64,000 nt of DNA from Candidatus Latescibacterota bacterium (GTDB lineage: Bacteria; Latescibacterota; UBA2968; UBA8231): NCBI GenBank assembly GCA_965203355.1, contig OZ241889.1:640001-704000 (forward strand). Reading direction: 5' to 3'. Below the pieces are notes generated by a model. It was not told the DNA's origin, made no database searches, and worked only from the letters and a program-made list of their open reading frames with translations. The position numbers were made by a program, and so were the translations under genes. This document shows positions 3,296 to 47,946 of this stretch, one piece after another; positions within the stretch are counted from its first letter, which is position 1, and every line of letters starts with the position of its first letter.

Positions 3296-4039
3296 TCACC
3301 GGTACTGATCCAAGTTCCCCTTGTACTCCAAACCCAGCACTTCTCGGCCCCGCGCCGTATTGCAGGTAGCGTCGGCTTCAGGCATGCCGACCACGTGCAA
3401 TACGTCAAACTCGACCTCGTCCCTTTCTAAGGCCAGTCGGCAGGCTTCGGCCAAATCGTGGCGACAGACCAAGCCGTTGCGGATGTTCTGCAGTGGTTCC
3501 CGGCTTTTGCCAATCCCCAAACGCGAATCCACGATGTAGTCGGGCCGCAAGACTACGATCGGCAACCCAAAGGCTTCGTGGAACTGGCGGCATATTTCCT
3601 CCTGTAGTCGCTTGCACACCGCGTACAAGCTGCCGTCGGGCCGCCGCACTTCCGAGGAAAAGAAAATTCCCTCGGGATGCACGGTCTGGCACGAGCCGAT
3701 GTGAACTACTTTGCGGACGCCCAGATCTTGCGCCGCTTGCAGGACGTTCCACAGGCCCTTGAGATTGATGAGGAAGGGTTTGTCGTCGTTGGGATCGCCG
3801 ACAAAGTAAACCGCGGTGTGAATGACGCCATCCGCGCCGCTGATGGCTTGCTCCACCGCGAGGTAATCGGCTATATCGCCGTGGACCACTTCGCCACCAC
3901 TCCAATCGCCGTCTATGTCGCGATACGCCTCCCAAGCTCGGGGACCGTAGTCAAAAGCGCGGATGGCGCGTTTGCCAGCCAAGTTTTGCAAGATGGCGCG
4001 GCCCAGCCAACCGGCGGCACCGAAAACTACTGTTTTCAC
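3296..4039 (-). CDS. NAD(P)-dependent epimerase/dehydratase (extended SDR)
   Basis: GAAGWLG Rossmann motif, HTA, YAVCK (YxxxK), LRP. Confidence 0.9.
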   Translation of the reverse strand: MKTVVFGAAGWLGRAILQNLAGKRAIRAFDYGPRAWEAYRDIDGDWSGGEVVHGDIADYLAVEQAISGADGVIHTAVYFVGDPNDDKPFLINLKGLWNVLQAAQDLGVRKVVHIGSCQTVHPEGIFFSSEVRRPDGSLYAVCKRLQEEICRQFHEAFGLPIVVLRPDYIVDSRLGIGKSREPLQNIRNGLVCRHDLAEACRLALERDEVEFDVLHVVGMPEADATCNTARGREVLGLEYKGNLDQYR

Positions 4040-4105
4040 GAGGGAATCCTTTCTCGAAACGCTCCAGCGCGTCGGCTTGGAATCGTCGCGTCATATCCGC
4101 AAACT

Positions 4106-5704
4106 TCACTCTACGACGAAGGTCGCACAGGTCTCTTGGCTCTCTTCGTATCCAATGCGGATCGCCCTGGCCCGCAAGGTGGTCGTCCCAGCTTCCATGC
4201 ACAGTGGCTCGGTGTAGAGGTTCCAATGCGGATCGTCGTCCACGGCGTACGCCATGGAAGCACCCTGAGTGGCGCAGTGGAGTTGTACCAGCAACGGCCC
4301 CCGGAATGTACCGCCTTCCAGCGTCGGCTCAGTCCCAAAGCTGTCGCCGCAGATGGGCACGCACACCGGCGGGGCTGTCTGCGGCTGTTGGCCATTGGGA
4401 TACCACTGCCGCATCATTTCGCTTTCCGTCATGCGGCCCATGTCGCCCACTTCTCGCAGCCATTCGTCCAAGGCTCTGCACAGGCGCTCCCGCTCTGGCT
4501 GGTACTGGGGATTGGCCGCCAAGTTGTTGATCTCGTGCGGATCGGCTTCGGTGTCGTACAGCTCTTCAACCGGCCTCGGATAGCGGAACATGGCCGATTG
4601 CGCCTCATCCAACTCGTCGGCCAAGTGCAAGCGCCACATTTCCTGCACAATGGGATGCCGATTGCGATAGGGGATCCACGCCAAGTAGGGGAGCTCTGGC
4701 CGATAATTGCGGATGTACTTAAAGCGGCGGTCGCGCACGGCCCGCACCATGTCGTACGCCTCGTCGTGCCGGTCGCGACTCGCATAGATGTACTCCCGCG
4801 GCGATTGGGCTTGGGGGCCCAAAAACGCGCAGCCCTGCATGTGGGCGAGCACGTCAAGCCCCGCGAGCGAGAGCATCGTAGGGCCTAGATCAACGGTGCT
4901 TACCAAGTCCTCACAGACCTGCCCGGCTTCCATACCGGGGCCGCGGACGATCAGGGGCACGTGAATGCCCGCGTCGTACGGCCAGCGTTTGCCGCGCGGC
5001 AGCGGGCCGTGATCGCTCCAGTGAAAGACGTACGTATTCTCGGACAAGCCGTCTTCGTCGAGCTGTTGTAGCAACTGGGCCAACTCTTGGTCGCTGTGCT
5101 CAATGTGCGTGTACATCCGCGCCATGGCTTGGCGCACTACGGGGGTATCGGGGAAATAGGGCGGCAGCGGAATGGCATCCGGGTCGAACGCTGGATTGGG
5201 ACATTTCTCGGGCCACATGCCGCTTTCGTGAGTGCGAGTGGGGTTGAAGACCGCAAAAAACGGCTGGTCTGGATCGGGACGGTCGCGCCAGTGAGCGTGC
5301 GGACCGAGCGCGTCCCAAGCTGTCAGCGGGGGGGTAAACTGATAATCGGTCTTGGCGTTGTTGGAGCAATAATACCCAGCCGCCCGCAGGTACTCCGTGA
5401 AGCACTTTACGTAGTGCGGCACAACGGCCGAATACGGCGTGGGCATTTCCGGTGTAGCGCGATTGGCGTGCGTCGTGCGCATGTGATGAGTGCCGATCGA
5501 GATCGCGTACATACCGGTGATGATCGCAGACCGGGCCGGGGCGCAGACGCCAGCGGTGGAGAAGCAGCGCGTCCAGCGGCAGCCCTCGGCAGCGAGCCGA
5601 TCCAACGTGGGCGTGCGCGCCACTGGATCGCCGTAGCATCCGTACCGAGGGTTAGTATCTTCAAATGAAATCCACAGAAAGTTGGGTTTGCGATCCCTAG
5701 CCAT
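4106..5704 (-). CDS. sulfatase with a C-terminal Fn3-associated/chitobiase-like beta domain
   Basis: KPNFLWISFED, CAPARS formylglycine motif, SDHG, ELYDTEADPHEINNLA; C-terminal CATQGASMAY..YTEPL..TLRARAIRIGYEES. Confidence 0.92.
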   Translation of the reverse strand: MARDRKPNFLWISFEDTNPRYGCYGDPVARTPTLDRLAAEGCRWTRCFSTAGVCAPARSAIITGMYAISIGTHHMRTTHANRATPEMPTPYSAVVPHYVKCFTEYLRAAGYYCSNNAKTDYQFTPPLTAWDALGPHAHWRDRPDPDQPFFAVFNPTRTHESGMWPEKCPNPAFDPDAIPLPPYFPDTPVVRQAMARMYTHIEHSDQELAQLLQQLDEDGLSENTYVFHWSDHGPLPRGKRWPYDAGIHVPLIVRGPGMEAGQVCEDLVSTVDLGPTMLSLAGLDVLAHMQGCAFLGPQAQSPREYIYASRDRHDEAYDMVRAVRDRRFKYIRNYRPELPYLAWIPYRNRHPIVQEMWRLHLADELDEAQSAMFRYPRPVEELYDTEADPHEINNLAANPQYQPERERLCRALDEWLREVGDMGRMTESEMMRQWYPNGQQPQTAPPVCVPICGDSFGTEPTLEGGTFRGPLLVQLHCATQGASMAYAVDDDPHWNLYTEPLCMEAGTTTLRARAIRIGYEESQETCATFVVE

Positions 5705-5914
5705 GCGTTCCTTGCCTTACTTTTGCCAACAAAGCGATGATTCAAATCTCCTGCGTCGCGCTGAAAGTTGCAGCGAGATGCGGCGCACTGTCAAGCGCGG
5801 GATTCACTTACATCTCGCCCGCTTGCTCACTAGCGCGGGGTTGTTTTCGGCCTACTCGTTGCGCATAATATGCGCTACCAATTCTCACAAACAGACGACG
5901 CTAGAAAAATCGCC

Positions 5915-7024
5915 ATGAATGCCTATCGTCGCATAGAAGCACTGCTCAAAGAGGCCGACGTGCATATCGGTGGAGACCGGCCCTGGGACATAGCTGTCCA
6001 CGACGACCGCTTTTTCGCGCACGTATTGGGTCGCGGATCGCTGGGTGTCGGCGAGTCGTACGTGGAAGGGTGGTGGGACTGTCCGCAGCTAGACGAACTT
6101 TGCGCGCGGCTCTTGCGCACCCGACTGGACCTAAAGTCGCGCGGCCGGCATCTGCTTTTGCCCTATCTGAAGGCACGGCTACTCAACCTGCAAACGCCTG
6201 CCCGCTCCTTCCAGGTCGGCCAGCACCACTACGATATCGGCAACGACCTGTACCGGGCGATGCTCGACCAGCGCATGATCTATAGCTGCGGGTATTGGCG
6301 CAATGCCGCCAACTTAGATGAGGCCCAAGAGGCCAAGCTCGATTTGTGCTGCCGCAAGCTGGGGCTGGAGCCGGGGATGACCCTGCTCGACATCGGCTGC
6401 GGCTGGGGCGGCACCCTGCGGTTTGCAGTCCAGCGCTACGGCGTCAAAGGGGTGGGCGTCACGATCTCCAAAGAGCAGGCAAAACTGGCCGAGGAGATGT
6501 GTCGCGGGCTGTCGGTAGAGATTCGCTTGCAGGACTACCGCGCCTTAGACGAGCACTTTGACCGCATCTTGTCGATCGGCATGTTCGAGCACGTGGGCGT
6601 CAAGAACTATCCAACCTTTATGCAAACGGTCAAGCACTGCCTCGCACCAGATGGGCGCTTTTTACTGCACACCATAGGCCGCAGCACCTCGGCGACCAAT
6701 AGCGATCCGTGGATTGAACGCTATATTTTCCCCAACTCTATGCTGCCTTCGGCTAAGCAGATAACCACGGCCGCTGAGGGGCACTTCGTCTTGGAGGACT
6801 GGCACGCCTTTGGCCAGCATTACGACCGGACGCTGATGGCTTGGTATGCCAACTTCAACGCGGCTTGGAGCGAGCTCAAAGCCCACTACGGCGAGCCCTT
6901 CTACCGGATGTGGACGTTCTACTTGCTGTCTTCGGCCGGCTCCTTCCGCGCCCGGGCGAATCAACTCTGGCAAGTCCTCTTCTCCGCTAGGGGAATTGAA
7001 GGGTCCTACGAAGTGCCGCGGTGA
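5915..7024 (+). CDS. cfa: cyclopropane-fatty-acyl-phospholipid synthase
   Basis: HYDIGNDLY, MIYSCGYW, LDIGCGWGG, SIGMFEHVG, WIERYIFP, FYRMWTFYL; start taken at ATG 5915. Confidence 0.93.
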   Translation: MNAYRRIEALLKEADVHIGGDRPWDIAVHDDRFFAHVLGRGSLGVGESYVEGWWDCPQLDELCARLLRTRLDLKSRGRHLLLPYLKARLLNLQTPARSFQVGQHHYDIGNDLYRAMLDQRMIYSCGYWRNAANLDEAQEAKLDLCCRKLGLEPGMTLLDIGCGWGGTLRFAVQRYGVKGVGVTISKEQAKLAEEMCRGLSVEIRLQDYRALDEHFDRILSIGMFEHVGVKNYPTFMQTVKHCLAPDGRFLLHTIGRSTSATNSDPWIERYIFPNSMLPSAKQITTAAEGHFVLEDWHAFGQHYDRTLMAWYANFNAAWSELKAHYGEPFYRMWTFYLLSSAGSFRARANQLWQVLFSARGIEGSYEVPR

Positions 7025-7062
7025 AAAATGCCGACACTGACAACGCATTCAGGAGGTCAATT

Positions 7063-7620
7063 TTGTCCGAGATAAAACACCTTTCCCTAGCAACGCTAAC
7101 CGCCGGGCTGGACGACATCCGTCAGTCGCCCCAAGCCGTCGGCGTATTGGAGCTGATCGTGCGACGGCCACAGACGGAGGCGCGTGAAGTCTTAGACGTG
7201 GGGGAACTCGATCCGGTCGAAGGGCTGGTAGGCGACAATTGGAAGCAGCGCGGCAGTTCGCAAACCGCCGATGGGTCGGCGCACCCAGACATGCAACTCA
7301 CGGTGACTAATGCCCGCTTGATGGCCCTAGTGGCCCAAGATAAGCGGCATTGGCCCCTAGCCGGAGATCAGCTATACATCGACTTCGACCTAAGCGTGGA
7401 TAACGCGCCGCCCGGGACTCGTCTGTCCCTAGGGGCGACCGTGATCCAAATCACCGAGCCGCCCCACACTGGCTGTAAAAAATATGCCGCGCGCTTTGGG
7501 TTAGACGCCCTGAAATTCATCAGTTCTCCAGTGGGCAAACAGCTTCAACTGCGCGGCGTCAACGCCAAGGTCATTCGCCCGGGCGCGATACAGGTTGGAG
7601 ACGTCGTGAAGAAGCTGTGA
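7063..7620 (+). CDS. MOSC-domain protein
   Basis: GLVGDNW, LAGDQLYIDFDLS, PHTGCKKYAARFG, LRGVNAKVIRPGAIQVGD; AGGAGG RBS before TTG 7063. Confidence 0.85.
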   Translation: MSEIKHLSLATLTAGLDDIRQSPQAVGVLELIVRRPQTEAREVLDVGELDPVEGLVGDNWKQRGSSQTADGSAHPDMQLTVTNARLMALVAQDKRHWPLAGDQLYIDFDLSVDNAPPGTRLSLGATVIQITEPPHTGCKKYAARFGLDALKFISSPVGKQLQLRGVNAKVIRPGAIQVGDVVKKL

Positions 7621-7621
7621 G

Positions 7622-8071
7622 CTAAAACCCACCGCCGCCCGGACCGCCACCGGACTGCGGCCCACCGCGCTGGCTCGCCCTCTGCTGCTGTAGGTGCCCT
7701 TTTAAGGCTTCGACCTGCTCGGCACTTAACACCGTGGCGAGCGCGGCCATGACTTGCTCGCGCATTTTGCTCTGCTGATCGCGCATTTTCTCGCGCATCG
7801 CCCGAAAGTCGGTCTCGCCGCCGCGGCCGCTGAACATTGCCGCCATCATCTGCCGTTGCTCCACGTATAGAGGCCCGAGCACCGCCCGCAGTGCCAGTAG
7901 CTGCTTGTCGTTCACTTCGAACTTCTCTTCAAAGGCCAGTAGAACAAAAACCTGCTCCGGGGTCGCGCCACCGCCCATGCCACCACGCCTGTCTCCTCGC
8001 TGGGCTTCGAGTGCCACGGTGCTCGCCAAACAAATGGCGACGATCCATACGGCCTTCTTGCGAATGCACAT
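7622..8071 (-). CDS. exported helical protein, Spy/CpxP (LTxxQ)-like
   Basis: Signal peptide (KKAVWIVAICLASTVALEA), Gly/Arg-rich ends, VNDKQ and LSAEQ LTxxQ-like motifs, Met-rich helices; AAGGAGA RBS before ATG 8071. Confidence 0.65.
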   Translation of the reverse strand: MCIRKKAVWIVAICLASTVALEAQRGDRRGGMGGGATPEQVFVLLAFEEKFEVNDKQLLALRAVLGPLYVEQRQMMAAMFSGRGGETDFRAMREKMRDQQSKMREQVMAALATVLSAEQVEALKGHLQQQRASQRGGPQSGGGPGGGGF

Positions 8072-8106
8072 CTCGATTCTCCTTGTAAGGTTTTTGCGGG
8101 ACACTG

Positions 8107-8145
8107 CGGCTAATTAGACACGCTATCGCCGCGATTCATTCCCGC
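8107..8145 (-). promoter_or_regulatory. 39-bp element, copy 2; ECF-sigma-type promoter
   Basis: Identical to 2867-2905; lies ~35 bp upstream of the Spy-like gene. Confidence 0.65.
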
Positions 8146-8166
8146 ACTTTGGCAACAAGACCAAGC

Positions 8167-9576
8167 TCAGTACGTCCACTGTCGCGGCAGCGGACGCTCG
8201 CGCTCTAGCAGCCGCTCTAGCAGCCGCTTGCGCACCGCCTGCAACCGGTCGGCGTATTCGCTTTCGCCCGCCACATCCTCGTAGGCCAGCGGGTCGCGCT
8301 CCAAGTCGAAGAGGGCCTCCGCTCCGCTGGCATCCACCACGTAGCGCAACCCCTCCATGCGCAGCGTTTTCCAGTGTCGATCAGGTTGGGTCATTTCCGT
8401 GATGGCGCAGCCGCGGCCGTCGGCTTCCTCGCCGCGCAAGTCTGCCAGCAGGGAACAGCCTTGCAATGCCGCTGGCCGCTGAATTGCGGCGGCGTCCAGC
8501 AGGGTAGGCACCACGTCTAATGCCTCGACGACGCGGGAGCAGTGCCCACCTGCTGACGAGCCACCGGGCCAGCGCATCAACAGGGGTACTCGCGTGACCG
8601 CGTCGTGCCCGGGGTAGCCCTTGCCATAGCGCAGATGTTCGCCGAGCCACTCGCCGTGGTCGGACGTGAAAACGACGATGGTGTTGTCCGCAATGCCCAG
8701 GGCGTCGAGCCGATCGAGAATGCGGCCGACGTGGTGATCGACTTCGGACACCATGGCGTAATAGCCGTGGTGCGCGGAGCGCAACTCGTCGTCGGAAAAG
8801 TGCTGCGGGCCTCGACGAGCATCGAGAGCGGGCGGGAAGGGCGGCAACGTCAGAGCGGTTGGATCGTAGAGATCGAGAAACTCCTCGGGGGCCACCCACG
8901 GATTGTGCGGCGAATAGAAACCAGCGATGCAGAGAAAAGGGCCGTCTCTATGGCGCGTCAAAAACTCCATGGTCTGCTCGGCGACAAACGCCGTGTGGGT
9001 CAGGTCGCTGCGGCAGCGGTTGGCCAAGGCGCGCTTGACAAAGCGCTCGGCTGGATGCGCGATCCCGTCGCGGACGTTCATAATCCGCTTCCACTCGATT
9101 GCACTGGGTGCTTCGCCGAGGCTGACGAAGTCGAGTTGTTCAGGAGCCTGCGCCGCCACCCAAGCCCGGTAGGCATCGTGGTAGGAACCCGGTTCGTCCG
9201 AAATCTCCAAGTGGTCGAAGCCGTAGTCGGGATGGGGCTCGCGGTGGTCGCGGTTGGCGTGCGGCAGAAAGTGCAGCTTGCCAATCTGGCCGCTGCAATA
9301 GCCGTAGTTGTGCAGCAAGCGTGGCAAAGTCGGCGCATCCTCGGGCACGGGCACACCCATGTGCGAAAGCCCTAGCGTGGATGGATACTGCCCGGTGAGA
9401 AAGCTCACGCGGCTGGGCATGCAAACCGGGTTCTGCACAAAGCAGTGGTCGAAATTTACTCCGGTAGCCGCGAGCCGGTCCAAGTGCGGTGTGCGGATTT
9501 CGGAGTTGCCGTTGACGCCGAGGGCGTCCCACCGTTGCTGATCGGTGTAGAGGATGAGGATGTTGGGTCGTTGCAT
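8167..9576 (-). CDS. sulfatase (arylsulfatase/choline-sulfatase-like)
   Basis: RPNILILYTDQQR, CMPSR, GKLH, FTSDHGE, LFDLERDP. Confidence 0.93.
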   Translation of the reverse strand: MQRPNILILYTDQQRWDALGVNGNSEIRTPHLDRLAATGVNFDHCFVQNPVCMPSRVSFLTGQYPSTLGLSHMGVPVPEDAPTLPRLLHNYGYCSGQIGKLHFLPHANRDHREPHPDYGFDHLEISDEPGSYHDAYRAWVAAQAPEQLDFVSLGEAPSAIEWKRIMNVRDGIAHPAERFVKRALANRCRSDLTHTAFVAEQTMEFLTRHRDGPFLCIAGFYSPHNPWVAPEEFLDLYDPTALTLPPFPPALDARRGPQHFSDDELRSAHHGYYAMVSEVDHHVGRILDRLDALGIADNTIVVFTSDHGEWLGEHLRYGKGYPGHDAVTRVPLLMRWPGGSSAGGHCSRVVEALDVVPTLLDAAAIQRPAALQGCSLLADLRGEEADGRGCAITEMTQPDRHWKTLRMEGLRYVVDASGAEALFDLERDPLAYEDVAGESEYADRLQAVRKRLLERLLERERPLPRQWTY

Positions 9577-9610
9577 CGTTGCTTTGAACCTTTGAAGACG
9601 TTTTGTCTCT

Positions 9611-9876
9611 TCAATAAAGGGCTAGAATTTCAAAGAGACCCACTACCGGAGCCCCACTGACCGGCGGAATAAGCACTACTTCGTCCCCGGCTTGTAACGC
9701 GGTCTGGCTCCCCGCGTACTCGGAGTTGACCGCAATCGACAACACCTGCTGCACCGCGGCCAGTTGCGGATACGCGGCCACGAGTTCGCGCTGCAAGCTT
9801 CGGCGATCTCCCACTCACAGCTTCTGTGGCCGACGGCATCGCGGCAGGAAGAAAAAAATAAAACCTTGATTTTCAT
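9611..9876 (-). pseudogene. moaD: MoaD/ThiS sulfur-carrier pseudogene (internal deletion/frameshift, C-terminal GG lost)
   Basis: MKIKVLFFSSCRDAVG..EIAE is in one frame and LQRELVAAYPQL..IAVNSEYA..LQAGDEVVLIPPVSG in another. It ends PPVSGAPVVG.. instead of PPVSGG*. Confidence 0.75.
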
Positions 9877-9929
9877 AATCAAGCACCAATAACGCCGCCT
9901 GACGCGACGAGCCGCGGCCAAAAAAGGAC

Positions 9930-10340
9930 ATGGGACCTCAAACCGAAAACTGAGGTCCCATTTCCGCAACTTGCGGTGTAGTGGGGGCTACTTGAGCAGC
10001 AACATCTTCTGGACGGCGAGGAAATCACCGCCCGCTTGCAAGCGGGCCGTAGGCGGGCGAGTTGACGTTCATAAAGAAAATGGGACCTCAAACCGAAAAC
10101 TGAGGTCCCATTTCCGTAACTCGCGGTGCCGCGGGTGCTACTTGAGCAGCAGCATCTTCTTGATGTCGACAAACGCTTCGCCGACCTGCAAGCGGTCCGT
10201 AAGCTGGCGATCTGACGTTCATAAGAAAATGGGACCCCAGAACATCGGGGTCCCATTTCCGTAACGCGCGGTGTCGCGTATGCTACTTGAGCAGCAGCAT
10301 CTTCTTGATGTCGAGGAAATCACCGCCCGCCTGCAAGCGG
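9930..10340 (-). repeat. tandem array, 149-150 bp period: three units of [last 18 codons + stop of a KMLLLK tail - hairpin terminator], joined by two similar 25-bp linkers
   Basis: TGGGACC hairpins start at 9931, 10081 and 10230. CTACTTGAGCAGC (= LLK*) is at 9988, 10138 and 10283. The tails read RLQAGGDFLDIKKMLLLK (gene), RLQVGEAFVDIKKMLLLK and RLQAGGDFLAVQKMLLLK. Confidence 0.95.
10226..10260 (-). terminator. intrinsic terminator of the giant surface-protein gene (two further copies at ~10076-10115 and ~9930-9965)
   Basis: GGAAATGGGACCCC-loop-GGGGTCCCATTTTC followed by T-rich sequence on the - strand. Confidence 0.8.
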
Positions 10341-13300
10341 TAGAAGTACATCCCGGACGACACGCTCTGGCCGCTATCGTTGGTCGCGTCCCATTCCACC
10401 GCGTAACGACCCGCCGCCTGATGCTCGGCAACCAGCGTCCGCACCGGCTGACCCAACACGTTATATACGGTCAGCCCCACGTCCGCCGCTTGCGGCAACG
10501 CATACTGAATCGTCGTCTGCGGATTGAACGGGTTCGGATAGTTGGCTGCCAGCGAAAACACGGCCGGGCGCGTCTGCACCGAAACCGGCGCGGGCAATGC
10601 CAAGCGGTTGAAGCCCAACGCCCGGTCATACGTCTGGCTGTCGGTGATTTCGAGGGTCGTGTGCTCGATCTCGGTCGTCGGCCGGAAGACCAAGCGCAGC
10701 ATCAGCTCGCCATCCGAAACGACGTCGCCGTGGGCGGCTACCGTCAACACGCCCGCTTGGTCGGCCAGCACCTGCGGCGTAGCGAACGCGCTCCCGCCCA
10801 GCGGCTGATCGGTCCGCACTTCGACGAAGGTTAGCTGGTCGGCGTCATAGGCTACTTGCAAGCCGTAGCCCTTGACCGCCACGAAATCGGCCAGTCGCAC
10901 ATTAACGACGAACTCTTCTCCTACGCTCGGCAGGGCTGTCGGCGCGTCCAGATACAGTCGCGCCTCCGCATTCAGCCCGGCTAGCAGCGGCACCGGCTTG
11001 CCCGCCACGGCCATGCTGCGACCGAAATGGTCGGCCAACACGAAGAAGTCGTCGAAGTCAATCGTCCCATTCGGCGCCAGGTCAAACGCCGGATCAAACC
11101 CGGCGTCACCGGCCGTCAAGCCGAAGCGGTCCGCCAACACGAAGAAGTCGTCGAACCCAATGCGTGCGTCGGCTCCGAACAGCCCCAACAGAGCCTGCCC
11201 TTGGCTATCGGCCACCCGGTTGCGCACGGCCAATGCGGTATGCTCAACCGAATCGGTCTCGTTGTCCCAATCGAAAGGCCGCACCTGATAGGTGTAATGC
11301 ACCCCATGCTGCGCCGTCTCATCGACGAAGGACGCGACCCCGGACGCCACCTCGGCGACCACGGAAAACGCTTCTTCGCCGACGGCGCGGCGATAGATGC
11401 GGTAGCCGTGTACGCCGACGACCGGCTCGACCGGTGCCGGGCCCAAGGCGCCAGCCACGACCCCTTGCAGCACCTGATCCGACGGCGACAGCGTCCACGT
11501 CAGCGCGATGCGACCACCCTGATCGTCCGGCGCATCCAACACCTGTAGTGCCGACACGGCCAACGGCGCGATGTCGTCAGTCGCCCGCACAGCCTCGGCC
11601 GTCCAAGTGATCGACGAACTCAGCACACTACTGACGACATTCAACTTCGGAGCCACGCCGCGAGCGTAGGCCAATGCTTCCGGCAGCAACGACGCCAGCA
11701 CCGGACCCTCCTGCGCGGCAGCGCGGCTGGCTTGCAGCGTCGCCGCCATCTGCGCGTAAGGCGCGGTCAGGTCGTCGGCCTCGACGAACACGGCTTTGGC
11801 CGCATGATGCGTGGTGCGACCCCCGCGCTCGGCGGCAATGCCCCAGCGCGTCGAGACGTTGTCCAGCGTCGCCACGATGGCGCGGCCCATCGCCACCCCA
11901 GGCACGGCATCCACCCGCGCCCACGGCACCATCTCATTTTCCAGCACCGGCAACGCACGGAAAATGCGATAGCCGTCCAGCGACTTATGATCCGCCGACA
12001 ACTCCCAAGACAGCATCACGAAACCGCCTTGGTCGCCTTGGCCGTCTGCACCTTTGTAGTCTTCGGCGACCAGGTTGGTCGGTGCCGACAGCGGCGGCTC
12101 CACCACCGCCATGCTCAACGGCAGCGACTGACTCGCGCCGCTGGCATCCATGACCGTGTAGGTCGCGACCGTCTCGCCCATCGTCGTCGGCGTCCCGGAA
12201 ATCGTCCGGGTCGCCGCGTCAAACGACAGCCCCGCTGGCAGCCCCGACACGCTATACGTCAGCGGTGGAGTGCCCCCGGAGACCGCCGGCAGCGTCAGGT
12301 TTGCCGGCACACCGACGGTGAATTGAATCATGTTGTCGGTGTGCGAGTCGGCCGGATTGGCTTTGCCGGCACCGCTGTTGAGACCGAACAACGAACTCAG
12401 GTCGCCAAAGTCCAGCATCGCGTTGATGGTAATCGCGAACATCAGCGAGACGCTTTCGGCGCCAGCCATGGCCGTGTAGGTGACCTCAACGGCCCCATCG
12501 GTCGCCGCTTCCGGCGTCCCCGAAATCGTCCGGGTCGCCGCGTCAAACGACAGCCCCGCTGGCAAACCCGACACGCTATACGTGATGGAGCCTTCGCCGC
12601 CCAACGCCACCGGCAACACCAACGGCGTAATCGCCGTGCCCGCCGTATAGGCATGTGCGTCGATCGAAGTGCCCTCGACGAAAGACAAGGGGATCATCAT
12701 CTCCCTATCGCCGTCATTATCGTCCATCATCCCGCTGTCTGTGTCCGTCAGCACCAGCGTCGCTGAACCCGCCGTCAAGCCGGGAAGCATCGCGTTGAGC
12801 ACCACCGTCTCGTCGCCTTCGGCCATACCGTCGGAGACCGGATCGATCAGCAGGCGCGTCGAACCCATAATCGAACCGGCGGCAATGGTAATGGTCGGAT
12901 TGAACAGCGCCGAGTAGTCCAAATCGCGCGCGGCACTCGAAGCCTCGTCAATCGAGACGGAGACCGTCGCGTTCTCGGCCAACGGCTTGCCGTCCAGCGC
13001 GGCCATGATCATCACTTCCGTCAATTCCGCCGACTCGCTGAGCGCGCTCGGCGTCACCGACAGCACCAGAGACGTGCTTGGCGTCTCGTCGTCGGAAATG
13101 CGCAGGTCCACCTGCCCCCAGCCGCCTGAAGCCGCCGCCCGAATACCCAAGTGCTTATGACCATCCGCCGAAGCGTTGTCAATCGGCGACAGGAAAAGCG
13201 TCGTCCAACCCATCGTCTCCCCGGCCGCAATGGTGATCGTCCCCGCTAATGTCGCGGTATAATCCACGTCGCGGGTGGCCGCCGCGCCGCTGGTCGGCGG

Positions 13301-15976
13301 CACAATCGTGAAACGGACCGTCTCAGCCGCCGGAGCCGCGCCCGACAAGGTCGCCGTAACTCGGATTTCAGCCGTGTCGCCGTTTTCGCGCACCGCCGAT
13401 TGCGAAGCCATCACACTCGCGACACCGACCGTCGCCGACGCGGCTTCACCCACCGTGATGGTGAAGGTCTTTGCGCCGCTGTCGCCATCGCTATCGAGCA
13501 CCATATAGACGACCGTGGCCATGCCCGCCAACGTCGGCGTGCCCGAAATCGTCCGCGTGGCCGCGTCAAACGACAGCCCCATCGGCAAGGTCGCCGAAAC
13601 GCTGTACATCAGCGTTCCTTGGCCGCCCATCGCCGCGGGCAACACCGTGCTGAACGCTTGCCCCACCGTCGCTTCAAAGGCTAACGCGGCAGCACCAAAG
13701 CTCGGTCGGCCCGTGTCCGCGGTCGTATCCGAAGAACCAGAATCATCCATCATCGCCGCGTCTTTCAGCGTGATCGTCGCGGTGCCGACCGTGATCTTGT
13801 CGTCGTCTTGGTTCTTGAGATTGTCCGTGAGCTGCTTGATCGTGATCGTCTTGTCGTTGGCGGGTTTGCCATCGTTGATCGGCGTGATCGTGATCGTCGT
13901 CGAGCCGGTGATCTCGCCGCGCGGAATCGTCAGCGAGCCAAGCACCGCCGTGTATTCTATATCCCGCGTCGCCTTCTTGTCCGGCGTCCGATCTACGACC
14001 AGCGTGATCGTCGCCGCCGCGTCCAGCACCTTGCCGTCCAACGTGCCGGTCACCGTCACCGTCGTCGCCCCGGCGTCCTTTTTGATTTCGCTCGGATTGA
14101 CCGACAGCGTGATGTCATCGCTCAGCGTCTCATCGTCCGTGATCTTGAACTCCACCGTATCCATCTGAGACGCTTCGGTGCCGACCTTCGCTATCACCTC
14201 GAACGTCCGATCCCCATTCACACCGCTGTTGTCCACCGGCGTGACCCGCAACGTCGCCGCGCCTTTCGTATCACCCGCCGGGATCGTCAACCCCTCAGTC
14301 ACCTCCACCTCGTAATGCACATCGCGCGTCCCCGTGCTATTCGTAAGAATCTGAAAGTCCACCGCCTTCGCGCCGGTTAGGGCTTTCTTCAATTCAACCG
14401 TCATCGCAATGTCGGTCGCCCCGGCGGCCTCGCGGATCATCTTCGGACTCAGCGTAAAATCCTTGATCTCCGCCACCGCAACGTCCTCAACCGTGATGGT
14501 GCCCCGATTGACCTTAATATCAGGCAAGATAAAAGATTCCACATACTTAATGGTGTCCCCAACACCGAACGTATCATCAAAGTCGCCATCGCCGTTAAGG
14601 TCGATACGGCCCACCCAATCAAATAAGTTTACGCGTCGCAAACCCACTTCACTTATAGCATTTCCGGTCGGCATATAGGAGTCCAAATAATCACCATCCC
14701 AACTGAGACTTCCCGCGTCCCTGCTCGCGTTCGTAAAGTCGACCCCCAACTCGCTTTCTACCAAGGCGGGGCCGCTCACAGGTACGGAGTCGATTCGATC
14801 CAAAACTCCTGTAGATCCCAAAGTGTAGGATAGAGCAGCTCCCTTATTAAAGGAAAGATCACCATCGCCGTTGAGGTCAAAGCAGATATAGAGATCTCGC
14901 TTTCCCTCACCGGTGTTCGTTTCTTTGACACTTGATCTGGCACCGGCAGGTATGACAAAATCATCTTTGTCCCACGTACCATCGCAGTTGATGTCTACCC
15001 GGACCTGCTTACCATTATACATCCGTTTCTTGATGACCTCCCCCTTCAGCAACGTATCCCTGGCCCCAACCACGATCTTGCCCGCCTTATTATTCGGATC
15101 GAGGGTGAACGTCGTCGTCCCTTCGATCTTCCGCTTTGGAATGGTCAACTTCCCCAGCCCCCTAAGCGAGTAATCCACATCGCGCGTCAACGTATCGGCA
15201 GCACCGCTAACAACAACCAACTGGGGTTCAAGCTTTTTGCTCGTCAACGCGCCGCCATCCAACGTGCCTGTCACTTCAATCGAAGTCACATCCGCCTGCT
15301 TGCTGAGTTTGGACGGCTTAAAAGAAAGATTAATCGCCTGCGGATACTGATCGTCGTCGAGGATCTCCACATACAGGTACTTCAAATTATTGCCGCCCTC
15401 ACCACCGCCGCTCTCCGTTACATACCTTTGCTGAGGACGATATATTATGTTTGCATTACCCGGCGTAAAACGAATAGGGACAAGAATATTAGGGAGTCCA
15501 CGCAGCAAAGTTTGAGCAACCGCCTTTTCCGTTTCCGGCGTACTCCAGAAGTCGTTTCGATCAAGATCAAGGGACTCCTTCGTGCTCTCTGGGGTAGGTC
15601 CGATCCGATCGTTGGGAATCGGGGTTATGGTGATAGTCCCAGTCGCCTTTTTCGCCCCCGCCTTAATCACGAGACTGGAGGGGAAGGATACTCTGAATAA
15701 GTCATTGAGATACTGTGCGGAGGCACTTGCTGCGGGGATACCCATTGCAATCTGAATGTCTTCGTCCGCCGCCTTGTCGTCTTCCACGACGGCTTCGACC
15801 GTAATATCTTGCGCTCCACCGTCCTCGTGGACGAAAAGCGGGTCAAGGGTAACATGAACATTCTTCTTCTGCTGACCCTTGGCCTCGCCGGCCCAGCCCA
15901 ACACCAAAATGGCCGCCAGCAAACAAGGCACAAAAGCCAAACGCGGCATCGGCACGAACAACTTCGCATGTATCAT
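10283..15976 (-). CDS. giant secreted/surface protein (~1897 aa): Calx-beta/Ig-like repeats, 3 He_PIG-type Ig domains, Fn3-like, EF-hand/dockerin-like pair, cohesin-like domain, FlgD-Ig/T9SS-type C-terminal domain
   Basis: CAGGAG RBS and ATG 15976, signal peptide ending WAGEAKG. Repeated 'L.V.P..I.E....T.I.VT.TL..ATRDVDY..LTIP.G..GTTTITITP' units and GLSFDAATRTISGTP x3. IGFDDFFVLADRFG / IDFDDFFVLADHFG. NYPNPFNPQTTIQY..WDATNDSGQSVSSGMYFYRL..KKMLLLK. Confidence 0.88.
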   Translation of the reverse strand: MIHAKLFVPMPRLAFVPCLLAAILVLGWAGEAKGQQKKNVHVTLDPLFVHEDGGAQDITVEAVVEDDKAADEDIQIAMGIPAASASAQYLNDLFRVSFPSSLVIKAGAKKATGTITITPIPNDRIGPTPESTKESLDLDRNDFWSTPETEKAVAQTLLRGLPNILVPIRFTPGNANIIYRPQQRYVTESGGGEGGNNLKYLYVEILDDDQYPQAINLSFKPSKLSKQADVTSIEVTGTLDGGALTSKKLEPQLVVVSGAADTLTRDVDYSLRGLGKLTIPKRKIEGTTTFTLDPNNKAGKIVVGARDTLLKGEVIKKRMYNGKQVRVDINCDGTWDKDDFVIPAGARSSVKETNTGEGKRDLYICFDLNGDGDLSFNKGAALSYTLGSTGVLDRIDSVPVSGPALVESELGVDFTNASRDAGSLSWDGDYLDSYMPTGNAISEVGLRRVNLFDWVGRIDLNGDGDFDDTFGVGDTIKYVESFILPDIKVNRGTITVEDVAVAEIKDFTLSPKMIREAAGATDIAMTVELKKALTGAKAVDFQILTNSTGTRDVHYEVEVTEGLTIPAGDTKGAATLRVTPVDNSGVNGDRTFEVIAKVGTEASQMDTVEFKITDDETLSDDITLSVNPSEIKKDAGATTVTVTGTLDGKVLDAAATITLVVDRTPDKKATRDIEYTAVLGSLTIPRGEITGSTTITITPINDGKPANDKTITIKQLTDNLKNQDDDKITVGTATITLKDAAMMDDSGSSDTTADTGRPSFGAAALAFEATVGQAFSTVLPAAMGGQGTLMYSVSATLPMGLSFDAATRTISGTPTLAGMATVVYMVLDSDGDSGAKTFTITVGEAASATVGVASVMASQSAVRENGDTAEIRVTATLSGAAPAAETVRFTIVPPTSGAAATRDVDYTATLAGTITIAAGETMGWTTLFLSPIDNASADGHKHLGIRAAASGGWGQVDLRISDDETPSTSLVLSVTPSALSESAELTEVMIMAALDGKPLAENATVSVSIDEASSAARDLDYSALFNPTITIAAGSIMGSTRLLIDPVSDGMAEGDETVVLNAMLPGLTAGSATLVLTDTDSGMMDDNDGDREMMIPLSFVEGTSIDAHAYTAGTAITPLVLPVALGGEGSITYSVSGLPAGLSFDAATRTISGTPEAATDGAVEVTYTAMAGAESVSLMFAITINAMLDFGDLSSLFGLNSGAGKANPADSHTDNMIQFTVGVPANLTLPAVSGGTPPLTYSVSGLPAGLSFDAATRTISGTPTTMGETVATYTVMDASGASQSLPLSMAVVEPPLSAPTNLVAEDYKGADGQGDQGGFVMLSWELSADHKSLDGYRIFRALPVLENEMVPWARVDAVPGVAMGRAIVATLDNVSTRWGIAAERGGRTTHHAAKAVFVEADDLTAPYAQMAATLQASRAAAQEGPVLASLLPEALAYARGVAPKLNVVSSVLSSSITWTAEAVRATDDIAPLAVSALQVLDAPDDQGGRIALTWTLSPSDQVLQGVVAGALGPAPVEPVVGVHGYRIYRRAVGEEAFSVVAEVASGVASFVDETAQHGVHYTYQVRPFDWDNETDSVEHTALAVRNRVADSQGQALLGLFGADARIGFDDFFVLADRFGLTAGDAGFDPAFDLAPNGTIDFDDFFVLADHFGRSMAVAGKPVPLLAGLNAEARLYLDAPTALPSVGEEFVVNVRLADFVAVKGYGLQVAYDADQLTFVEVRTDQPLGGSAFATPQVLADQAGVLTVAAHGDVVSDGELMLRLVFRPTTEIEHTTLEITDSQTYDRALGFNRLALPAPVSVQTRPAVFSLAANYPNPFNPQTTIQYALPQAADVGLTVYNVLGQPVRTLVAEHQAAGRYAVEWDATNDSGQSVSSGMYFYRLQAGGDFLDIKKMLLLK

Positions 15977-15978
15977 TA

Positions 15979-16329
15979 CTAAATCTCCTGAAGGAAAGTA
16001 TCGCCCAAGGGCGAAAGGGAAAGGGTAGAAGGAAATGGACTTAGCCTTATCACTAAGCCGTTGCGTTCTTGTATTTTTGCTACCGTTGAGCAAGACGAAT
16101 CCCTCGCGGCGAGAGCTAGGCTACGACGTCGCCGGCCGATAACCGCGAGGCTACCGAGGATGGGTTTCAATGCCCAAGAAAATCGGGGGGGGGGGGGTAA
16201 ATCATTGTTTTTTAACGACTTATGGCGATTAAGCCTCGGCGTTATCGCAAGTGTAGAACAAGGCACCGCTATCGCATCAAGCACCGCTCCCGGCGATGGC
16301 GTTCTTTGTGCTATTGACGTTGTGCCCAT
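15979..16329 (-). CDS. putative leader ORF (116 aa) containing a C13 tract, stopping 2 nt before the surface-protein ATG
   Basis: ORF track; ..KSLKNNDLPPPPR.. spans the tract; junction GAGATT-TAG-TA-ATG; RBS weak. Confidence 0.35.
   Translation of the reverse strand: MGTTSIAQRTPSPGAVLDAIAVPCSTLAITPRLNRHKSLKNNDLPPPPRFSWALKPILGSLAVIGRRRRSLALAARDSSCSTVAKIQERNGLVIRLSPFPSTLSLSPLGDTFLQEI
16185..16197. repeat. G13/C13 homopolymer, next to the imperfect palindrome TAAATCATTG-N5-TAACGACTTA (IHF-like)
   Basis: Direct read: aatcGGGGGGGGGGGGGtaaatcattgttttttaacgactta. Confidence 0.9.
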
Positions 16330-16395
16330 GTCCTGTTAATCCGACTAAGAATGCCGCAAGCGGCGGCGGGTTCTATACCGAAACGCAACGCTGTA

Positions 16396-16424
16396 TAAAT
16401 ATGAATTTTGTGAAAATAAGTCAA
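16396..16424 (-). promoter_or_regulatory. candidate sigma70 promoter for the leader/surface-protein transcript
   Basis: TTGACT-N17-TATTTA on the - strand in an AT-rich intergenic stretch. Confidence 0.45.
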
Positions 16425-16707
16425 GTGCAGAAGTTCCCGTAACATTATGATGGAGATCGAATCAGAAGCCTACTATTGGAGACGTTAGCGAGAACATCGG
16501 TGGGTGACTAACAAAAAATGTCAAGGGAAAAGTAAGGGGTCTGACCAATAAAACGCTAAGCCAGCTAATCCAGCGTCCGCTTGGATCGCACGAGCCTGCG
16601 CCAGCCCCGACACAGAAAACACTGCGGAAAATCCGGGCCGATGACCGGACTTAGCGGAAACCAAAGCAGCGCGTGGACCACCTTGATTATTTTGCACAAA
16701 ACGTTTT

Positions 16708-17331
16708 TCATGGTTTTTCCTCCTCGGCGAAGAGTTGCTCGGTTACTGCGGCCATCAGCTCGGGGCCGTCGCTCTGACGGAAGAGGAACCGCACCTTGCC
16801 CTGCTGGTCAATCAGGTAGGTATAGGTCGAGTGATCGACTAAGTAAGCGTCCTGCTCCGCTCCGAGGGAATAGTGAGCACCATACTGGCGCACCACTTGG
16901 TCGATTTCCTCCTTGTCGCCGCGCAGGCCAATCGCATCAATGGCGAAATAGCCGAGATACTCCGCCAACTTCTCCTGCGTATCGCGCTTGGGATCAACGG
17001 TGACGAAGAGGGTCGTCAACTCCTGCTGGTGCTCGTCTAAGAGCTGATAGACGCGGCCCATCTTCGACAGGGTCACCGGACAGATGTCCGGGCAATAGGT
17101 GTACCCGAAGAAGAGCATGGCGGCTTGGCCGCGCAAACGTTGCAACTCAAAGCGCACCCCGTGCTGATCCACGAGCGCGAAGTCGCCGCCAATGCCGCCG
17201 AAGTCCTGTAAGGAGGGGACTTCCAAGGGGGTGGATTCGGCGACTGGGTCTTTTGGGGCCTCTGGCTGTGCGCCGCAAGCCGCAAGCCACGCAAACACCG
17301 CGCAACAGACCAGCGCGTCAATCGCTCTCAT
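16708..17331 (-). CDS. SCO1/SenC family copper chaperone (lipoprotein)
   Basis: LAAC lipobox, FFGYTYCPDICP, VTVDPKRD, VDHSTYTYLID. Confidence 0.93.
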   Translation of the reverse strand: MRAIDALVCCAVFAWLAACGAQPEAPKDPVAESTPLEVPSLQDFGGIGGDFALVDQHGVRFELQRLRGQAAMLFFGYTYCPDICPVTLSKMGRVYQLLDEHQQELTTLFVTVDPKRDTQEKLAEYLGYFAIDAIGLRGDKEEIDQVVRQYGAHYSLGAEQDAYLVDHSTYTYLIDQQGKVRFLFRQSDGPELMAAVTEQLFAEEEKP

Positions 17332-17758
17332 AAAGACCTTTCTTTTGCACCCGCATTTGTACGCGCCTTTCTGTTCCGTCGCCAAACCGCAACACCAACT
17401 CCACCTCATCGCCATCCCGCAGCGGCTGGCGCAGTTCCATCAGCATCAAATGGGTGCCACCCGGCTCCAGCGCAACCTCTTCACCTGCTGGGATCGGCAG
17501 CTCCGCGACTCGGCGCATCGTCATCCGGTCGTCCTTGTATTCCATTACGTGTATCTCTGTTTGCTCGGCGACCTCGGTTTCCACAGCGACCCATGCGATG
17601 GATTCGCCGCCGCGATTTTCAACGACCAAGTAACCAGCCGCTGGGCTGCGCGGGGGCGGCTCGCGGATCCAAGCGTCGCGCACGACGATGGGGTCGCCGG
17701 TATGCTCTTTTGCACATCCAAACACCGAAACCAACAAAAACGCAACGGCAATTTTCAC
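17318..17758 (-). CDS. PCu(A)C copper chaperone (lipoprotein)
   Basis: DAWIRE, AAGYLVVEN, EIH..M.M, LEPGGTHLMLM (H-x-M..HxM copper motif). Confidence 0.92.
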   Translation of the reverse strand: MKIAVAFLLVSVFGCAKEHTGDPIVVRDAWIREPPPRSPAAGYLVVENRGGESIAWVAVETEVAEQTEIHVMEYKDDRMTMRRVAELPIPAGEEVALEPGGTHLMLMELRQPLRDGDEVELVLRFGDGTERRVQMRVQKKGLYESD

Positions 17759-17774
17759 CGGATGTCTTCCTTAC

Positions 17775-18587
17775 TCAGACCTTGACGCCAATCACGCCAA
17801 CCATGGGCGGCGATGCAATGCGAGCTTGCGGATCGAGGGCGTTTGCCTGCCATTCTTCCCAGTGCGCCGCGCACTCTTCCTCGCGCAAGACGCCGCGTAC
17901 CACAAGCTCGGGCAGATATACGCGCAGGAACCGCTCTATCCAGCACCAGATGCGGTCCCCCGGGCGGACCATACCGGCGATGGGAACGACCTCCACGACC
18001 TCCAAACCACACCGCGCCATCAGCTCCGGCAGCTTCCCGCCGATTTCCAATCCCTCGCCAAAACTCGCATGGACCGCCTGCAACACGCGTCGCAAGTGGG
18101 GATACCCAATCCGGGCGACAAACGCGCCATAAGCGCAGTAATCCACAATCGCGAAGCGACCGCCCGTTCTCAGCACTCGCGCCACCCGCTCTATCACCTC
18201 TTGCGGCTCCTCTATGAAACAGAACAACCAGCGGGCAAACGCAGCGTCCATAGAAGCGGCCGGCAGATCCAGGGTGCGGACATCCGCTACGGCGATCTCG
18301 ACTTGCCGCAAGCCGGCTGACGCGGCGCGACGCCGGAGAAAGTCCGCGAACTTCGGCGATCCATCAACCGCCAAAATGCGCCCGGCCGCCCCCACGCGCT
18401 CGGCCAGCTCTAAGCTGGTAAAACCCGGTCCGCAACCGAGATCGAGAATCGCCTGCCCAACGCTGAAATCGGCACGCTCCCACAAGTCTGTGGTCTCGGG
18501 GTGCCACGTGTGGTGCTGCGCCCGTAGGCGTCGCAGTTCCTCGTCGTCGGTCCCCAACAAATAATCGCGTTCGGCAGCGGTGCTCAC
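17775..18587 (-). CDS. class I SAM-dependent methyltransferase
   Basis: ILDLGCGPG, AVDGS, VLRTGGRF. Confidence 0.88.
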   Translation of the reverse strand: MSTAAERDYLLGTDDEELRRLRAQHHTWHPETTDLWERADFSVGQAILDLGCGPGFTSLELAERVGAAGRILAVDGSPKFADFLRRRAASAGLRQVEIAVADVRTLDLPAASMDAAFARWLFCFIEEPQEVIERVARVLRTGGRFAIVDYCAYGAFVARIGYPHLRRVLQAVHASFGEGLEIGGKLPELMARCGLEVVEVVPIAGMVRPGDRIWCWIERFLRVYLPELVVRGVLREEECAAHWEEWQANALDPQARIASPPMVGVIGVKV

Positions 18588-18593
18588 GGGTGC

Positions 18594-19814
18594 TTACTCC
18601 GGTGGCAAGACCAAGTACTCGCCCGTGCGGATCCCATAGCTCTCGCCGAGTTCCGGGTACGCGACCCCCGCTCGGCCATTCCAGTCCCAGACCACTTCGC
18701 CATCCTTGACCGTCAGCTCGCAAAACAGCCGCTGCTGGCCGTCCAACCGGCCATCGAAAGAATCGGCGTAGCCAAACTCTCCCTCCATCCGCTTCAAAGC
18801 CGCCACATCGGCCACGGCACCTACCGAGAGATGGCCCAACTCGGGGTGGCCAATCTCCTGCGCGGGGTTGATGGTTGAGGCGCGAATGACCTCCCCGAGC
18901 GGCATGCCCATCACCAAGAATTTCGACATGGTCGTCGCCATATCGAGCATACCCATATTCATGCAGAGGACGTGCAAGTCGGTCGAGATCGAGTCTGGGT
19001 AAAAGCCTTGGGCGATGGCTGGGACCGCATTGCGGAAACAGAAACTGCCGCCGCCGTGCCCCACGTCCAAGATGACGCCCCTGGCCCGCGCCTCGTGTAG
19101 ATAGGGCAACACCTTTCCCTCGGCATCAAACCACGGCGTCGGTCCGCGGAAGATGTGGGTGCTTATGTCGCCTCGGCGCAGTTTTTCGCCCAAGAGCTGG
19201 TAGTAGGGGCGTTCCTTTCTGAAGTAGCCAAAGTCGATCATCACCCGCGTCGCAGCCTTTTCAGCGGCCGCGAGTGCGCGATCGACCGAAACCCATTCAG
19301 GACCCATGTAGTGCGCCGTCTTGATGCCAACGACTACATCCTCGTTTTCGCGCGCCACGGCCGCTGTCTTGTCGGGATCCATGTCGTACGGGTTCTGCTC
19401 GTGGTCGGTAGAGGTCATCCCAGTCCCGGCGATATTGACCAGCGCGAAGAGCCGCGTCTGGCAGCGGTCGATTACCCGATAGCGAAAATCCTCAAAGTTA
19501 CGCCAGCCCGCGCTCCCGGTATCCACCATCGTCGTCACTCCAGTGCGGAAACTAAAGCCGTCGGGCAGGATGCTGTTGTCGCCAGCCCACGTATCGCGGT
19601 GGCCAGCCGTGGCATAGGCGTGGATGTGGACATCTACCAGCCCTGGCGTCACGTAGAGTCCGCTCACGTCGATGACCTGCCCTGCACCCTCGGTCGGCAA
19701 GTCCACATCTACAGCCGCGATCACCTGCCCTGTGATGCCGATGTCCTTGGGCGCGTCAATGCCGTTTTGGGGATCAATCAGATGACCGCCCTTGAGTACG
19801 AGATCAAACTGCAT
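18594..19814 (-). CDS. amidohydrolase/deacetylase family metallohydrolase (dihydroorotase-like)
   Basis: PGLVDVHIH, GVTTMVDTGS, GIK, DVGHGGGSF, ISTDLH, TINPA. Confidence 0.88.
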   Translation of the reverse strand: MQFDLVLKGGHLIDPQNGIDAPKDIGITGQVIAAVDVDLPTEGAGQVIDVSGLYVTPGLVDVHIHAYATAGHRDTWAGDNSILPDGFSFRTGVTTMVDTGSAGWRNFEDFRYRVIDRCQTRLFALVNIAGTGMTSTDHEQNPYDMDPDKTAAVARENEDVVVGIKTAHYMGPEWVSVDRALAAAEKAATRVMIDFGYFRKERPYYQLLGEKLRRGDISTHIFRGPTPWFDAEGKVLPYLHEARARGVILDVGHGGGSFCFRNAVPAIAQGFYPDSISTDLHVLCMNMGMLDMATTMSKFLVMGMPLGEVIRASTINPAQEIGHPELGHLSVGAVADVAALKRMEGEFGYADSFDGRLDGQQRLFCELTVKDGEVVWDWNGRAGVAYPELGESYGIRTGEYLVLPPE

Positions 19815-19874
19815 GGTTAAACTTCTCCGAGAAGGGGATGAAGGTTGAAAAATAAAAAACAGCGTCGCTTTTTG

Positions 19875-27944: not shown

Positions 27945-27946
27945 GG

Positions 27947-44522: not shown

Positions 44523-44548
44523 TAATTAAATCCTAGGCTTTTGTCGTT

Positions 44549-46843
<2,295 letters not shown>

Positions 46844-46869
<26 letters not shown>

Positions 46870-47932: not shown

Positions 47933-47946
47933 TACTACTGCTTACC

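Follow-up and report, generated by a model that had tools for sequence, protein, structure and literature searches.

The window, by which we mean the whole 64-kb stretch of DNA analysed, comes from a sponge-associated Latescibacterota bacterium. It carries a giant surface-protein gene on the minus strand, followed by three tandem gene-end units, the first of which (U1) is the gene's own 3' end and the other two (U2 and U3) are orphan units (Table 1). The real start of the gene is probably further inside the ORF listed in Table 1, near the signal-peptide-like sequence MPRLAFVPCLLAAILVLGWAG. Pfam profiles assign He_PIG (Ig-like repeats, 110 bits) and FlgD_ig (47.3 bits, cut-off 27) to the protein. 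Its translated C-terminus reads YFYRLQAGGDFLDIKKMLLLK before the stop codon. At this extreme C-terminus, the NCBIfam profile TIGR04183 (T9SS type A sorting domain) covers residues 1852-1924 of 1936 with 32.2 bits, above the curated cut-off of 23, while the Pfam profile Por_Secre_tail stays under its cut-off of 27 with 24.7 bits. A match to SprA_N (86 bits, cut-off 27) is found in a 2130-aa frame of the closest relative found (G001, 4.5 Mb). In Porphyromonas, PorU removes the sorting domain once the protein has been exported, according to excerpts of three papers (PMC4560394, PMC4804311, PMC8545088).

Table 1. Features of the locus, in window coordinates.
Feature	Position	Strand	Content and basis
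Inserted block (~6.9 kb)	~9648..16572	minus	207 nt without known match, conserved leader, giant gene, U2, U3, moaD fragment
Leader segment of giant gene	16169..16365	minus	78-85% identity with ~20 G001 paralogs
Giant surface-protein gene	10283..16093	minus	1936-aa ORF counted from first TTG; from ORF list and translation
Unit 1 (U1)	10196..10340	minus	Functional tail 10283-10340 (last 18 codons and TAG), 22-nt spacer, hairpin 10227-10258, T-tract, linker 1 at 10196-10220
Unit 2 (U2), orphan	10046..10195	minus	Core CCGCTTGCA, tail RLQVGEAFVDIKKMLLLK and stop, spacer, hairpin 10078-10113, linker 2 at 10046-10070
Unit 3 (U3), orphan	~9930..10045	minus	Core CCGCTTGCA, tail RLQAGGDFLAVQKMLLLK and stop, spacer, hairpin 9930-9961, then GTCCTTTTTT
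moaD-like pseudogene	9652..9879	minus	Deletion of ~16 nt shifts the frame; from translation compared with the intact G001 copy

Tandem Repeats Finder reports a repeat at 9923-10340 with period 150, 2.8 copies, 82% matches, 1% indels and a score of 535, and a repeat search returns three copies at spacings of 150 and 145 on the minus strand, all in direct orientation. Each of the two 25-nt linkers, which differ from one another at 5 of 25 positions, joins the next unit at the identical core CCGCTTGCA (codon R of RLQ); U3 has no linker. The 34-nt linker-core pattern has two exact matches in the window and none in 100 shuffles. The 21-mer covering KMLLLK and the stop codon is present at three places in the array and at 27947 (two mismatches), and was never found in shuffles. 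The preliminary description of this DNA had reported two extra tail-plus-terminator units that begin at the same core behind a 25-bp linker; the repeat and the exact linker-core matches confirm this, and the three tails read as given there.

The stop codons of U1 and U2 are 145 nt apart, so that U2 is out of frame with the giant gene. Both orphan frames are closed by an in-frame TGA eight codons upstream (TTA TGA ACG...), U2 lacks a start codon preceded by a ribosome-binding site, and the ORF list of the window contains no ORF between the units. The orphan tails U2 and U3 are most likely untranslated, and the array itself is probably inert.

The hairpin of U1 (32 nt, ATGGGACC...GGTCCCAT) follows the stop codon after the 22-nt spacer. 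All three hairpins are stable (-29 to -33 kcal/mol, z -3.7 to -5.2; U1 -33.4, z -5.2; U2 -32.6, z -5.1), with perfect stems of 12-16 bp and T-tracts, and such hairpins are common to the genes of the family as predicted terminators. A scan with a terminator consensus flags only the hairpin of U3 (9961..9930); the sequence behind those of U1 and U2 reads TTTTCTT(T)A. Among 36 family sequences, 15 pairs of the hairpin are kept, 9 of them with compensatory changes. The array hairpins thus combine a GC-rich stem-loop, a U-tract and covariation, as expected for Rho-independent terminators, and termination is predicted from sequence. It had been noted that the stems stay paired although their sequence varies. 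The pairing is real; compensation did not occur in situ, because both hairpin variants exist among paralogs in related genomes, and the preserved pairing reflects the diversity of the family. An Rfam scan of 9300-16800 (E up to 1) returned no match, and the predicted folds of the linker-core junctions (z -0.4 and -1.2) are indistinguishable from those of shuffles.

The array resembles tandem intrinsic terminators in that three stable GC-rich hairpins with T-rich 3' sequence stand in series on the strand of the gene. It differs in that the units which space the hairpins contain copies of coding sequence. None of 167 related genomes has the tandem arrangement, which is therefore not conserved as a design. 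The orphan units would at most provide two back-up intrinsic terminators, as predicted from their hairpins.

The 21-mer was also used for a scan covering one genome per prokaryote species. This yielded 74 stretches, mostly from Latescibacterota MAGs, in which the DNA sequence of tail, spacer and hairpin is conserved behind many paralogs. With up to two mismatches, 74 hits were found in 13 of 16 relatives, and 21 of these hits are in G001, which encodes over 20 paralogs, full or partial, of the giant protein. About 20 paralogs per genome share a module consisting of tail, spacer and hairpin. From tail through hairpin, U1 is 91% identical to the modules of G001 paralogs, and U2 and U3 are 84-85% identical to them. 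Over the same segment, the units show 81.6% (U1-U2), 78.4% (U1-U3) and 82.4% (U2-U3) identity with each other.

Further conserved sequence was observed around the family genes. At the G001 loci L012, L013, L027, L029, L036, L047, L058, L065, L072 and L074, conserved non-coding sequence extends 100-330 nt after the hairpin. About 17 shorter G001 paralogs (~1450 aa) share 200-330 nt of conserved non-coding sequence behind the terminator, which is of two types with a common end, followed by unique flanks. Small AAGTA(G/A) duplications are found directly after the stop codon in several species (L032, L050, L052 and the L225 orphan), which suggests a spot prone to slippage or recombination. The leader of the giant gene in the window contains a run of 13 C (16185-16197, minus strand), which lies within the segment conserved upstream of about 20 G001 paralogs.

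The giant gene and its array are part of an inserted block. Window positions 20000..16573 and 9582..3296 match G001 positions 3015546-3018972 and 3018995-3025255 at 93%, and these two G001 stretches are only 22 bp apart. The empty site is contiguous in G001 and in 7 of 15 others (16 genomes searched). As the flanks are adjacent in G001 and the empty site is contiguous, about 6.9 kb were inserted in the lineage of the window, with a SCO1/SenC gene on one side and a sulfatase gene on the other. The block ends showed neither a repeated element nor an inverted repeat, and the left 207 nt of the block have no match in the window, in related family loci or in five relatives.

The last ~290 nt of the block (9652-9939) are 85% identical to G001 3502500-3502816, a region directly behind a gene for a 716-aa sorting-domain protein (gene B), which is itself located behind a giant paralog. 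The ancestral locus was searched for in 30 relatives, of which 16 gave any match and 14 a match to the moaD region. The order giant gene, gene B (716 aa), moaD is conserved: all 14 genomes with a moaD-region match have a giant-type tail 2.1-2.3 kb upstream. In the window, the distance from tail to moaD is 0.4 kb and is taken up by U2 and U3; gene B is absent. The block is a copy of the giant gene/gene B/moaD locus minus gene B. U3 is a fusion, having a tail and spacer of the giant-gene type and, from the 3' arm of its hairpin onward, the sequence found downstream of gene B. The same fusion within the hairpin to a gene-B-type downstream sequence, with a single tail, is present at the G001 paralog L033. 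These two fusions point to crossing-over between two homologous terminators as the route by which gene B was lost.

The block shares with MITE-bounded or composite mobile cassettes that a giant surface-protein gene and its leader sit between housekeeping genes while the empty site is kept in a close relative. It differs from them in that its 3' part copies chromosomal neighbours (the gene-B terminator and moaD), and in appearance it is closer to a copied chromosome segment than to a transposon with defined ends. At the right edge, a 48-nt motif (9600-9647) was considered as a block-end element and rejected, as it looks like native intergenic sequence before the sulfatase gene. The motif recurs at two other G001 sites with 85-90% identity and may be a promoter or regulatory box. 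In one sponge metagenome run from a related strain (X1), 16 extra letters are found at window position 9649, the moaD edge, which match native post-moaD sequence; the insertion is therefore common to strains, with a differing edge.

A recurrence of the linker-core junction in related genomes, considered in the preliminary description, was not observed in any of 167 genomes of the phylum. In the same set, searched with positive controls, no tandem tails at the array spacing were found. The linker is absent from 16 relatives at up to three mismatches and from the 21 family ends of G001. No robust similarity was obtained between the linker and the reverse complement of the tail, upstream coding sequence, the sequence downstream of the 21 paralogs, or that downstream of U3; in the comparisons of linker and tail, 1 of 12 gave p=0.007 and the others p >=0.09. 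Metagenome matches to a 16-base linker pattern (at least 119 stretches) were discarded as chance, since their best BLAST alignments to the array cover at most 26 nt.

Orphan tails as such are found in 2 of 16 relatives. Genome G007 has a single orphan tail 282 bp behind the tail of the gene, and G002 a single one 372 bp behind it, after a small coiled-coil/transmembrane ORF. Both begin at about codons 5-7 of the tail and not at the core seen in the window, and their spacers differ from those of the window. Such differing boundaries and spacers fit non-specific events. Orphan tails arise repeatedly, at different points. A search of a limited literature collection yielded no report of T9SS sorting tails that are orphaned or arranged in tandem. 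At the G002 locus (L226, G002:C1:243000-243800, minus strand), a 372-bp insert with an ORF of ~80 aa (coiled-coil/transmembrane) lies between the stop codon of the family gene and its terminator; on both sides of it stand direct copies of 39 nt of the tail end, which differ at two positions.

Logan contigs from public sequencing runs contain exact pieces over 9822-9959 and 9937-10041 (runs X9, X10 and X11, from two studies). They also contain a joint that goes back by 150 (X10), skips of 146-168, and linker-to-core joins with 7-8 other letters (X9, X10 and X11). These joints weakly hint at other unit arrangements or copies; their short sides were matched at 90% likeness and could stem from paralogs or other organisms.

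The relationship between the three units changes from segment to segment. Tails are closest between U1 and U3 (5 of 58 positions differ) and spacers between U1 and U2 (4 of 22), while the hairpins of U2 and U3 are identical (0 of 36), as are U1 and U2 over the last 35 nt around the stop codon. Divergence within a pair is strongly uneven, with 0/36 versus 13/58 for U2-U3 (Fisher p=0.0014) and 0/35 versus 8/23 for U1-U2 (p=0.0003). The units are mosaics, and neither uniform divergence nor a single tree for all segments was found, as a simple duplication would give.

The nature of the tail differences was compared with a family profile of 25 distinct tails. The tail of U2 has eight clustered nucleotide differences from that of U1 and no residue outside the profile, and only 3 of 20,000 simulations with eight random substitutions were as much in-family. 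The five differences of the U3 tail introduce one out-of-family residue (K to Q), which is borderline (p=0.056). The proposal that the units look like ends of functional paralogs rather than random decay is thus upheld for U2, with U3 being a borderline case. Tails and hairpins are family-like, while the linkers, which have no counterpart, differ at 5 of 25 positions. We read this as gene conversion from functional paralogs, which refreshes those parts for which donors exist.

These patterns bear on the possibility that a single 150-bp segment was duplicated in tandem in situ, with only neutral decay of the two non-functional copies thereafter. The head-to-tail units with their constant period and the identical position of both junctions are what such a duplication would produce, and the junction is unique to this locus among the 167 genomes, none of which has tandem tails at this spacing. 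Several points speak against it. The nearest neighbour of a unit changes by segment, the clustered differences of U2 are all in-family, and the identity between units does not exceed that with paralogs in another genome. Moreover, the linker differs from the sequence after the last unit, so that plain duplication of resident sequence cannot generate it. We therefore regard duplication followed by decay as doubtful.

Our preferred reading, to which we assign a probability of roughly 0.55, is that U2 and U3 are untranslated scars left when paralog ends recombined, both homologously and illegitimately, that gene conversion patched later and that serve at most as spare terminators. Gene B would have been lost from the copied locus by crossing-over between two homologous terminator hairpins, and U3 would thereby have become the working tail of the giant gene. 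Later, repair or gene conversion on another paralog as template may have copied the tail of that paralog, its hairpin and about 25 nt beyond. The copied segment would have been joined to the resident copy at the start of the tail, in the quasi-palindromic CCGCTTGCAGGCGG, such that the old tail was pushed downstream. Unequal crossing-over in this two-unit array could then have produced the third unit, which would explain why both junctions are alike. Short-patch gene conversion from the many functional paralogs may keep tails and hairpins family-like, while the linkers, having no donor, drift. No dedicated enzyme would be involved in any of these steps.

Some observations count against this reading. 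A site-specific process could likewise yield two identical junctions. A single unequal crossover predicts the hairpin of U1 in the middle unit, which instead carries that of U3, so that extra conversion events have to be assumed; the combination in U2 of U3's hairpin with U1's tail end forces extra conversion steps in any model. As the linker has no matching source sequence, the proposed donor paralog is hypothetical. Finally, the hints in Logan contigs at more linker-core variants, together with the joint that goes back by 150, count against a one-off scar, and the units may be more numerous or more dynamic than that term implies.

The array has also to be compared with displaced toxin tips. 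Orphan cdiA-CT/cdiI and Rhs C-terminal modules downstream of a main toxin gene were reportedly described by Poole et al. in 2011 (PMC3150448). A corresponding process at our locus would be serial gene replacement, in which an incoming gene body with its tail, terminator and linker recombines at the core and pushes the old tail downstream, where it is kept as a reservoir or record. Several findings agree with it: the block that carries the gene was inserted, U1 resembles the family more than the other two units do, U3 runs without a break into the oldest downstream sequence, the tails of the units resemble former functional tails, and the contig joints hint at further junction variants. The orphan units have no start codon, and their sequence sets in abruptly at a conserved motif of the main gene. 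The same is described for orphan cdiA-CT and Rhs ends, which are interpreted as earlier ends that newer ones have displaced (as stated in excerpts of PMC9086364).

This orphan array is the closest described architecture, with tandem 3'-end fragments behind a large polymorphic gene for a surface or secreted protein. The window has its outline but fails its defining content. The fragments come with neither a variable functional domain nor a partner gene, and no benefit of keeping them is apparent; each "tip" consists of just 18 codons from a sorting signal, without cargo or an immunity-like gene. On the 5' side of the variable patch, the homology extends over only 11 nt, too little for homologous recombination to bring about re-fusion. 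The junction was seen in none of the 167 phylum genomes, no family end of G001 carries the linker, and the orphans in relatives begin at other codons. Serial replacement of this kind is therefore unlikely. Of the suggestion that repeated integration displaces older tails downstream, the mobile multi-copy family, the 6.9-kb insertion and the continuity of U3 with older downstream sequence hold. Nothing points to a fixed-site system of the integron or shufflon type, given the direct units, the lack of a recombinase among the 47 window ORFs, the absence of the junction from the 167 genomes, and the different codons at which the orphan tails of relatives begin.

A different role for the module can be envisaged. 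It might be a portable recombination handle which lets 15-20 giant surface-protein genes replace and relocate whole bodies, a displacement similar to that of CdiA or Rhs tips but affecting adhesin-like gene bodies; orphan units would be footprints of such replacements, and the linker would mark the end of a transferred segment. We consider this improbable. In Neisseria pilE/pilS, silent cassettes share a conserved 3' handle, the Sma/Cla repeat. The window is similar in having a multigene surface-protein family with a conserved non-coding 3' element, which offers possible homology for exchange. It differs in that its orphan units have no variable exposed region and no flanking homology on both sides, and that in studied type IX systems the tail is removed from the mature protein. 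The alternative proposal of the preliminary description, silent donors for tail swapping, is disfavoured by the limit of 11 nt of homology 5' of the variable patch and by the cleavage of the sorting domain after export in those type IX systems which the excerpted papers cover.

A dedicated site-specific system acting at the CCGCTTGCA core, either integron- or shufflon-like or a programmed switching of tails, is poorly supported, as is tail swapping. That both junctions are identical and lie at a short core with partial palindromy, and that frames, stop codons and hairpins are preserved in all units, would be in line with it. However, no integrase, transposase, invertase, recombinase or reverse transcriptase was detected among the 47 ORFs of the window (recombinase profiles with E up to 1e-5 for 43 ORFs and up to 0.01 for 4 ORFs), in agreement with what had been stated before. 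An integron would have attI and an IntI-type tyrosine recombinase beside the array, the latter not seen among the 47 window ORFs, and cassettes consisting of an ORF and an imperfect attC palindrome; the units contain no complete ORF and their stems are perfect, as judged from their folds. A shufflon would have inverted sites and an Rci-type recombinase, whereas the units are direct repeats. The hairpins are the perfect-stem predicted terminators of all family genes, with no Rfam match, and the junction is absent from the 167 genomes. As the sorting domain is removed after export in the type IX systems described in the excerpts, a varying tail changes nothing on the cell surface. Taken together, such a system is very improbable.

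Equally hard to maintain is an assembly artefact, in which different paralog ends were threaded together: there are many near-identical family ends, and none of the public contig pieces listed spans the whole array, but ordinary paralog ends cannot yield linker-core joins, the piece 10140-10237 (tail 2, linker 1, start of hairpin 1) occurs with 0 differences in X9, and 9937-10041 does so in all three runs from the two studies, of which one run may be the source sample.

The array is a real and locally unique pile-up of gene-end modules and of modest interest in itself; it is more useful as evidence for the evolution of the family. Under the reading as recombination scars, the locus is a readable trace of reshuffling in a large family of giant secreted proteins of sponge-associated Latescibacterota. 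The genes of this family, which have a common leader and a 3' module conserved at the nucleotide level, would be copied to new sites, lose neighbours by crossing-over between terminators, and be patched by gene conversion. If the module did act as a handle for the exchange of gene bodies, the junction variants in public contigs and the joint that goes back by 150 would represent ongoing turnover between strains, and the principle of displaced orphan ends would extend from toxin tips to whole surface-protein genes.

Two other regions of the window may be mentioned. A second sorting-domain gene (27498-30319), with a GSDH/DUF7133 assignment and a tail ending in KMLLLK before the stop codon, is not followed by a family-type hairpin; an ORF with an HSDR_N domain starts just past its stop codon. 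Positions 42024-51083 represent a replication-origin neighbourhood with dnaA, dnaN, recF, gyrB and gyrA, and with yidC, mnmE and gidB opposite.
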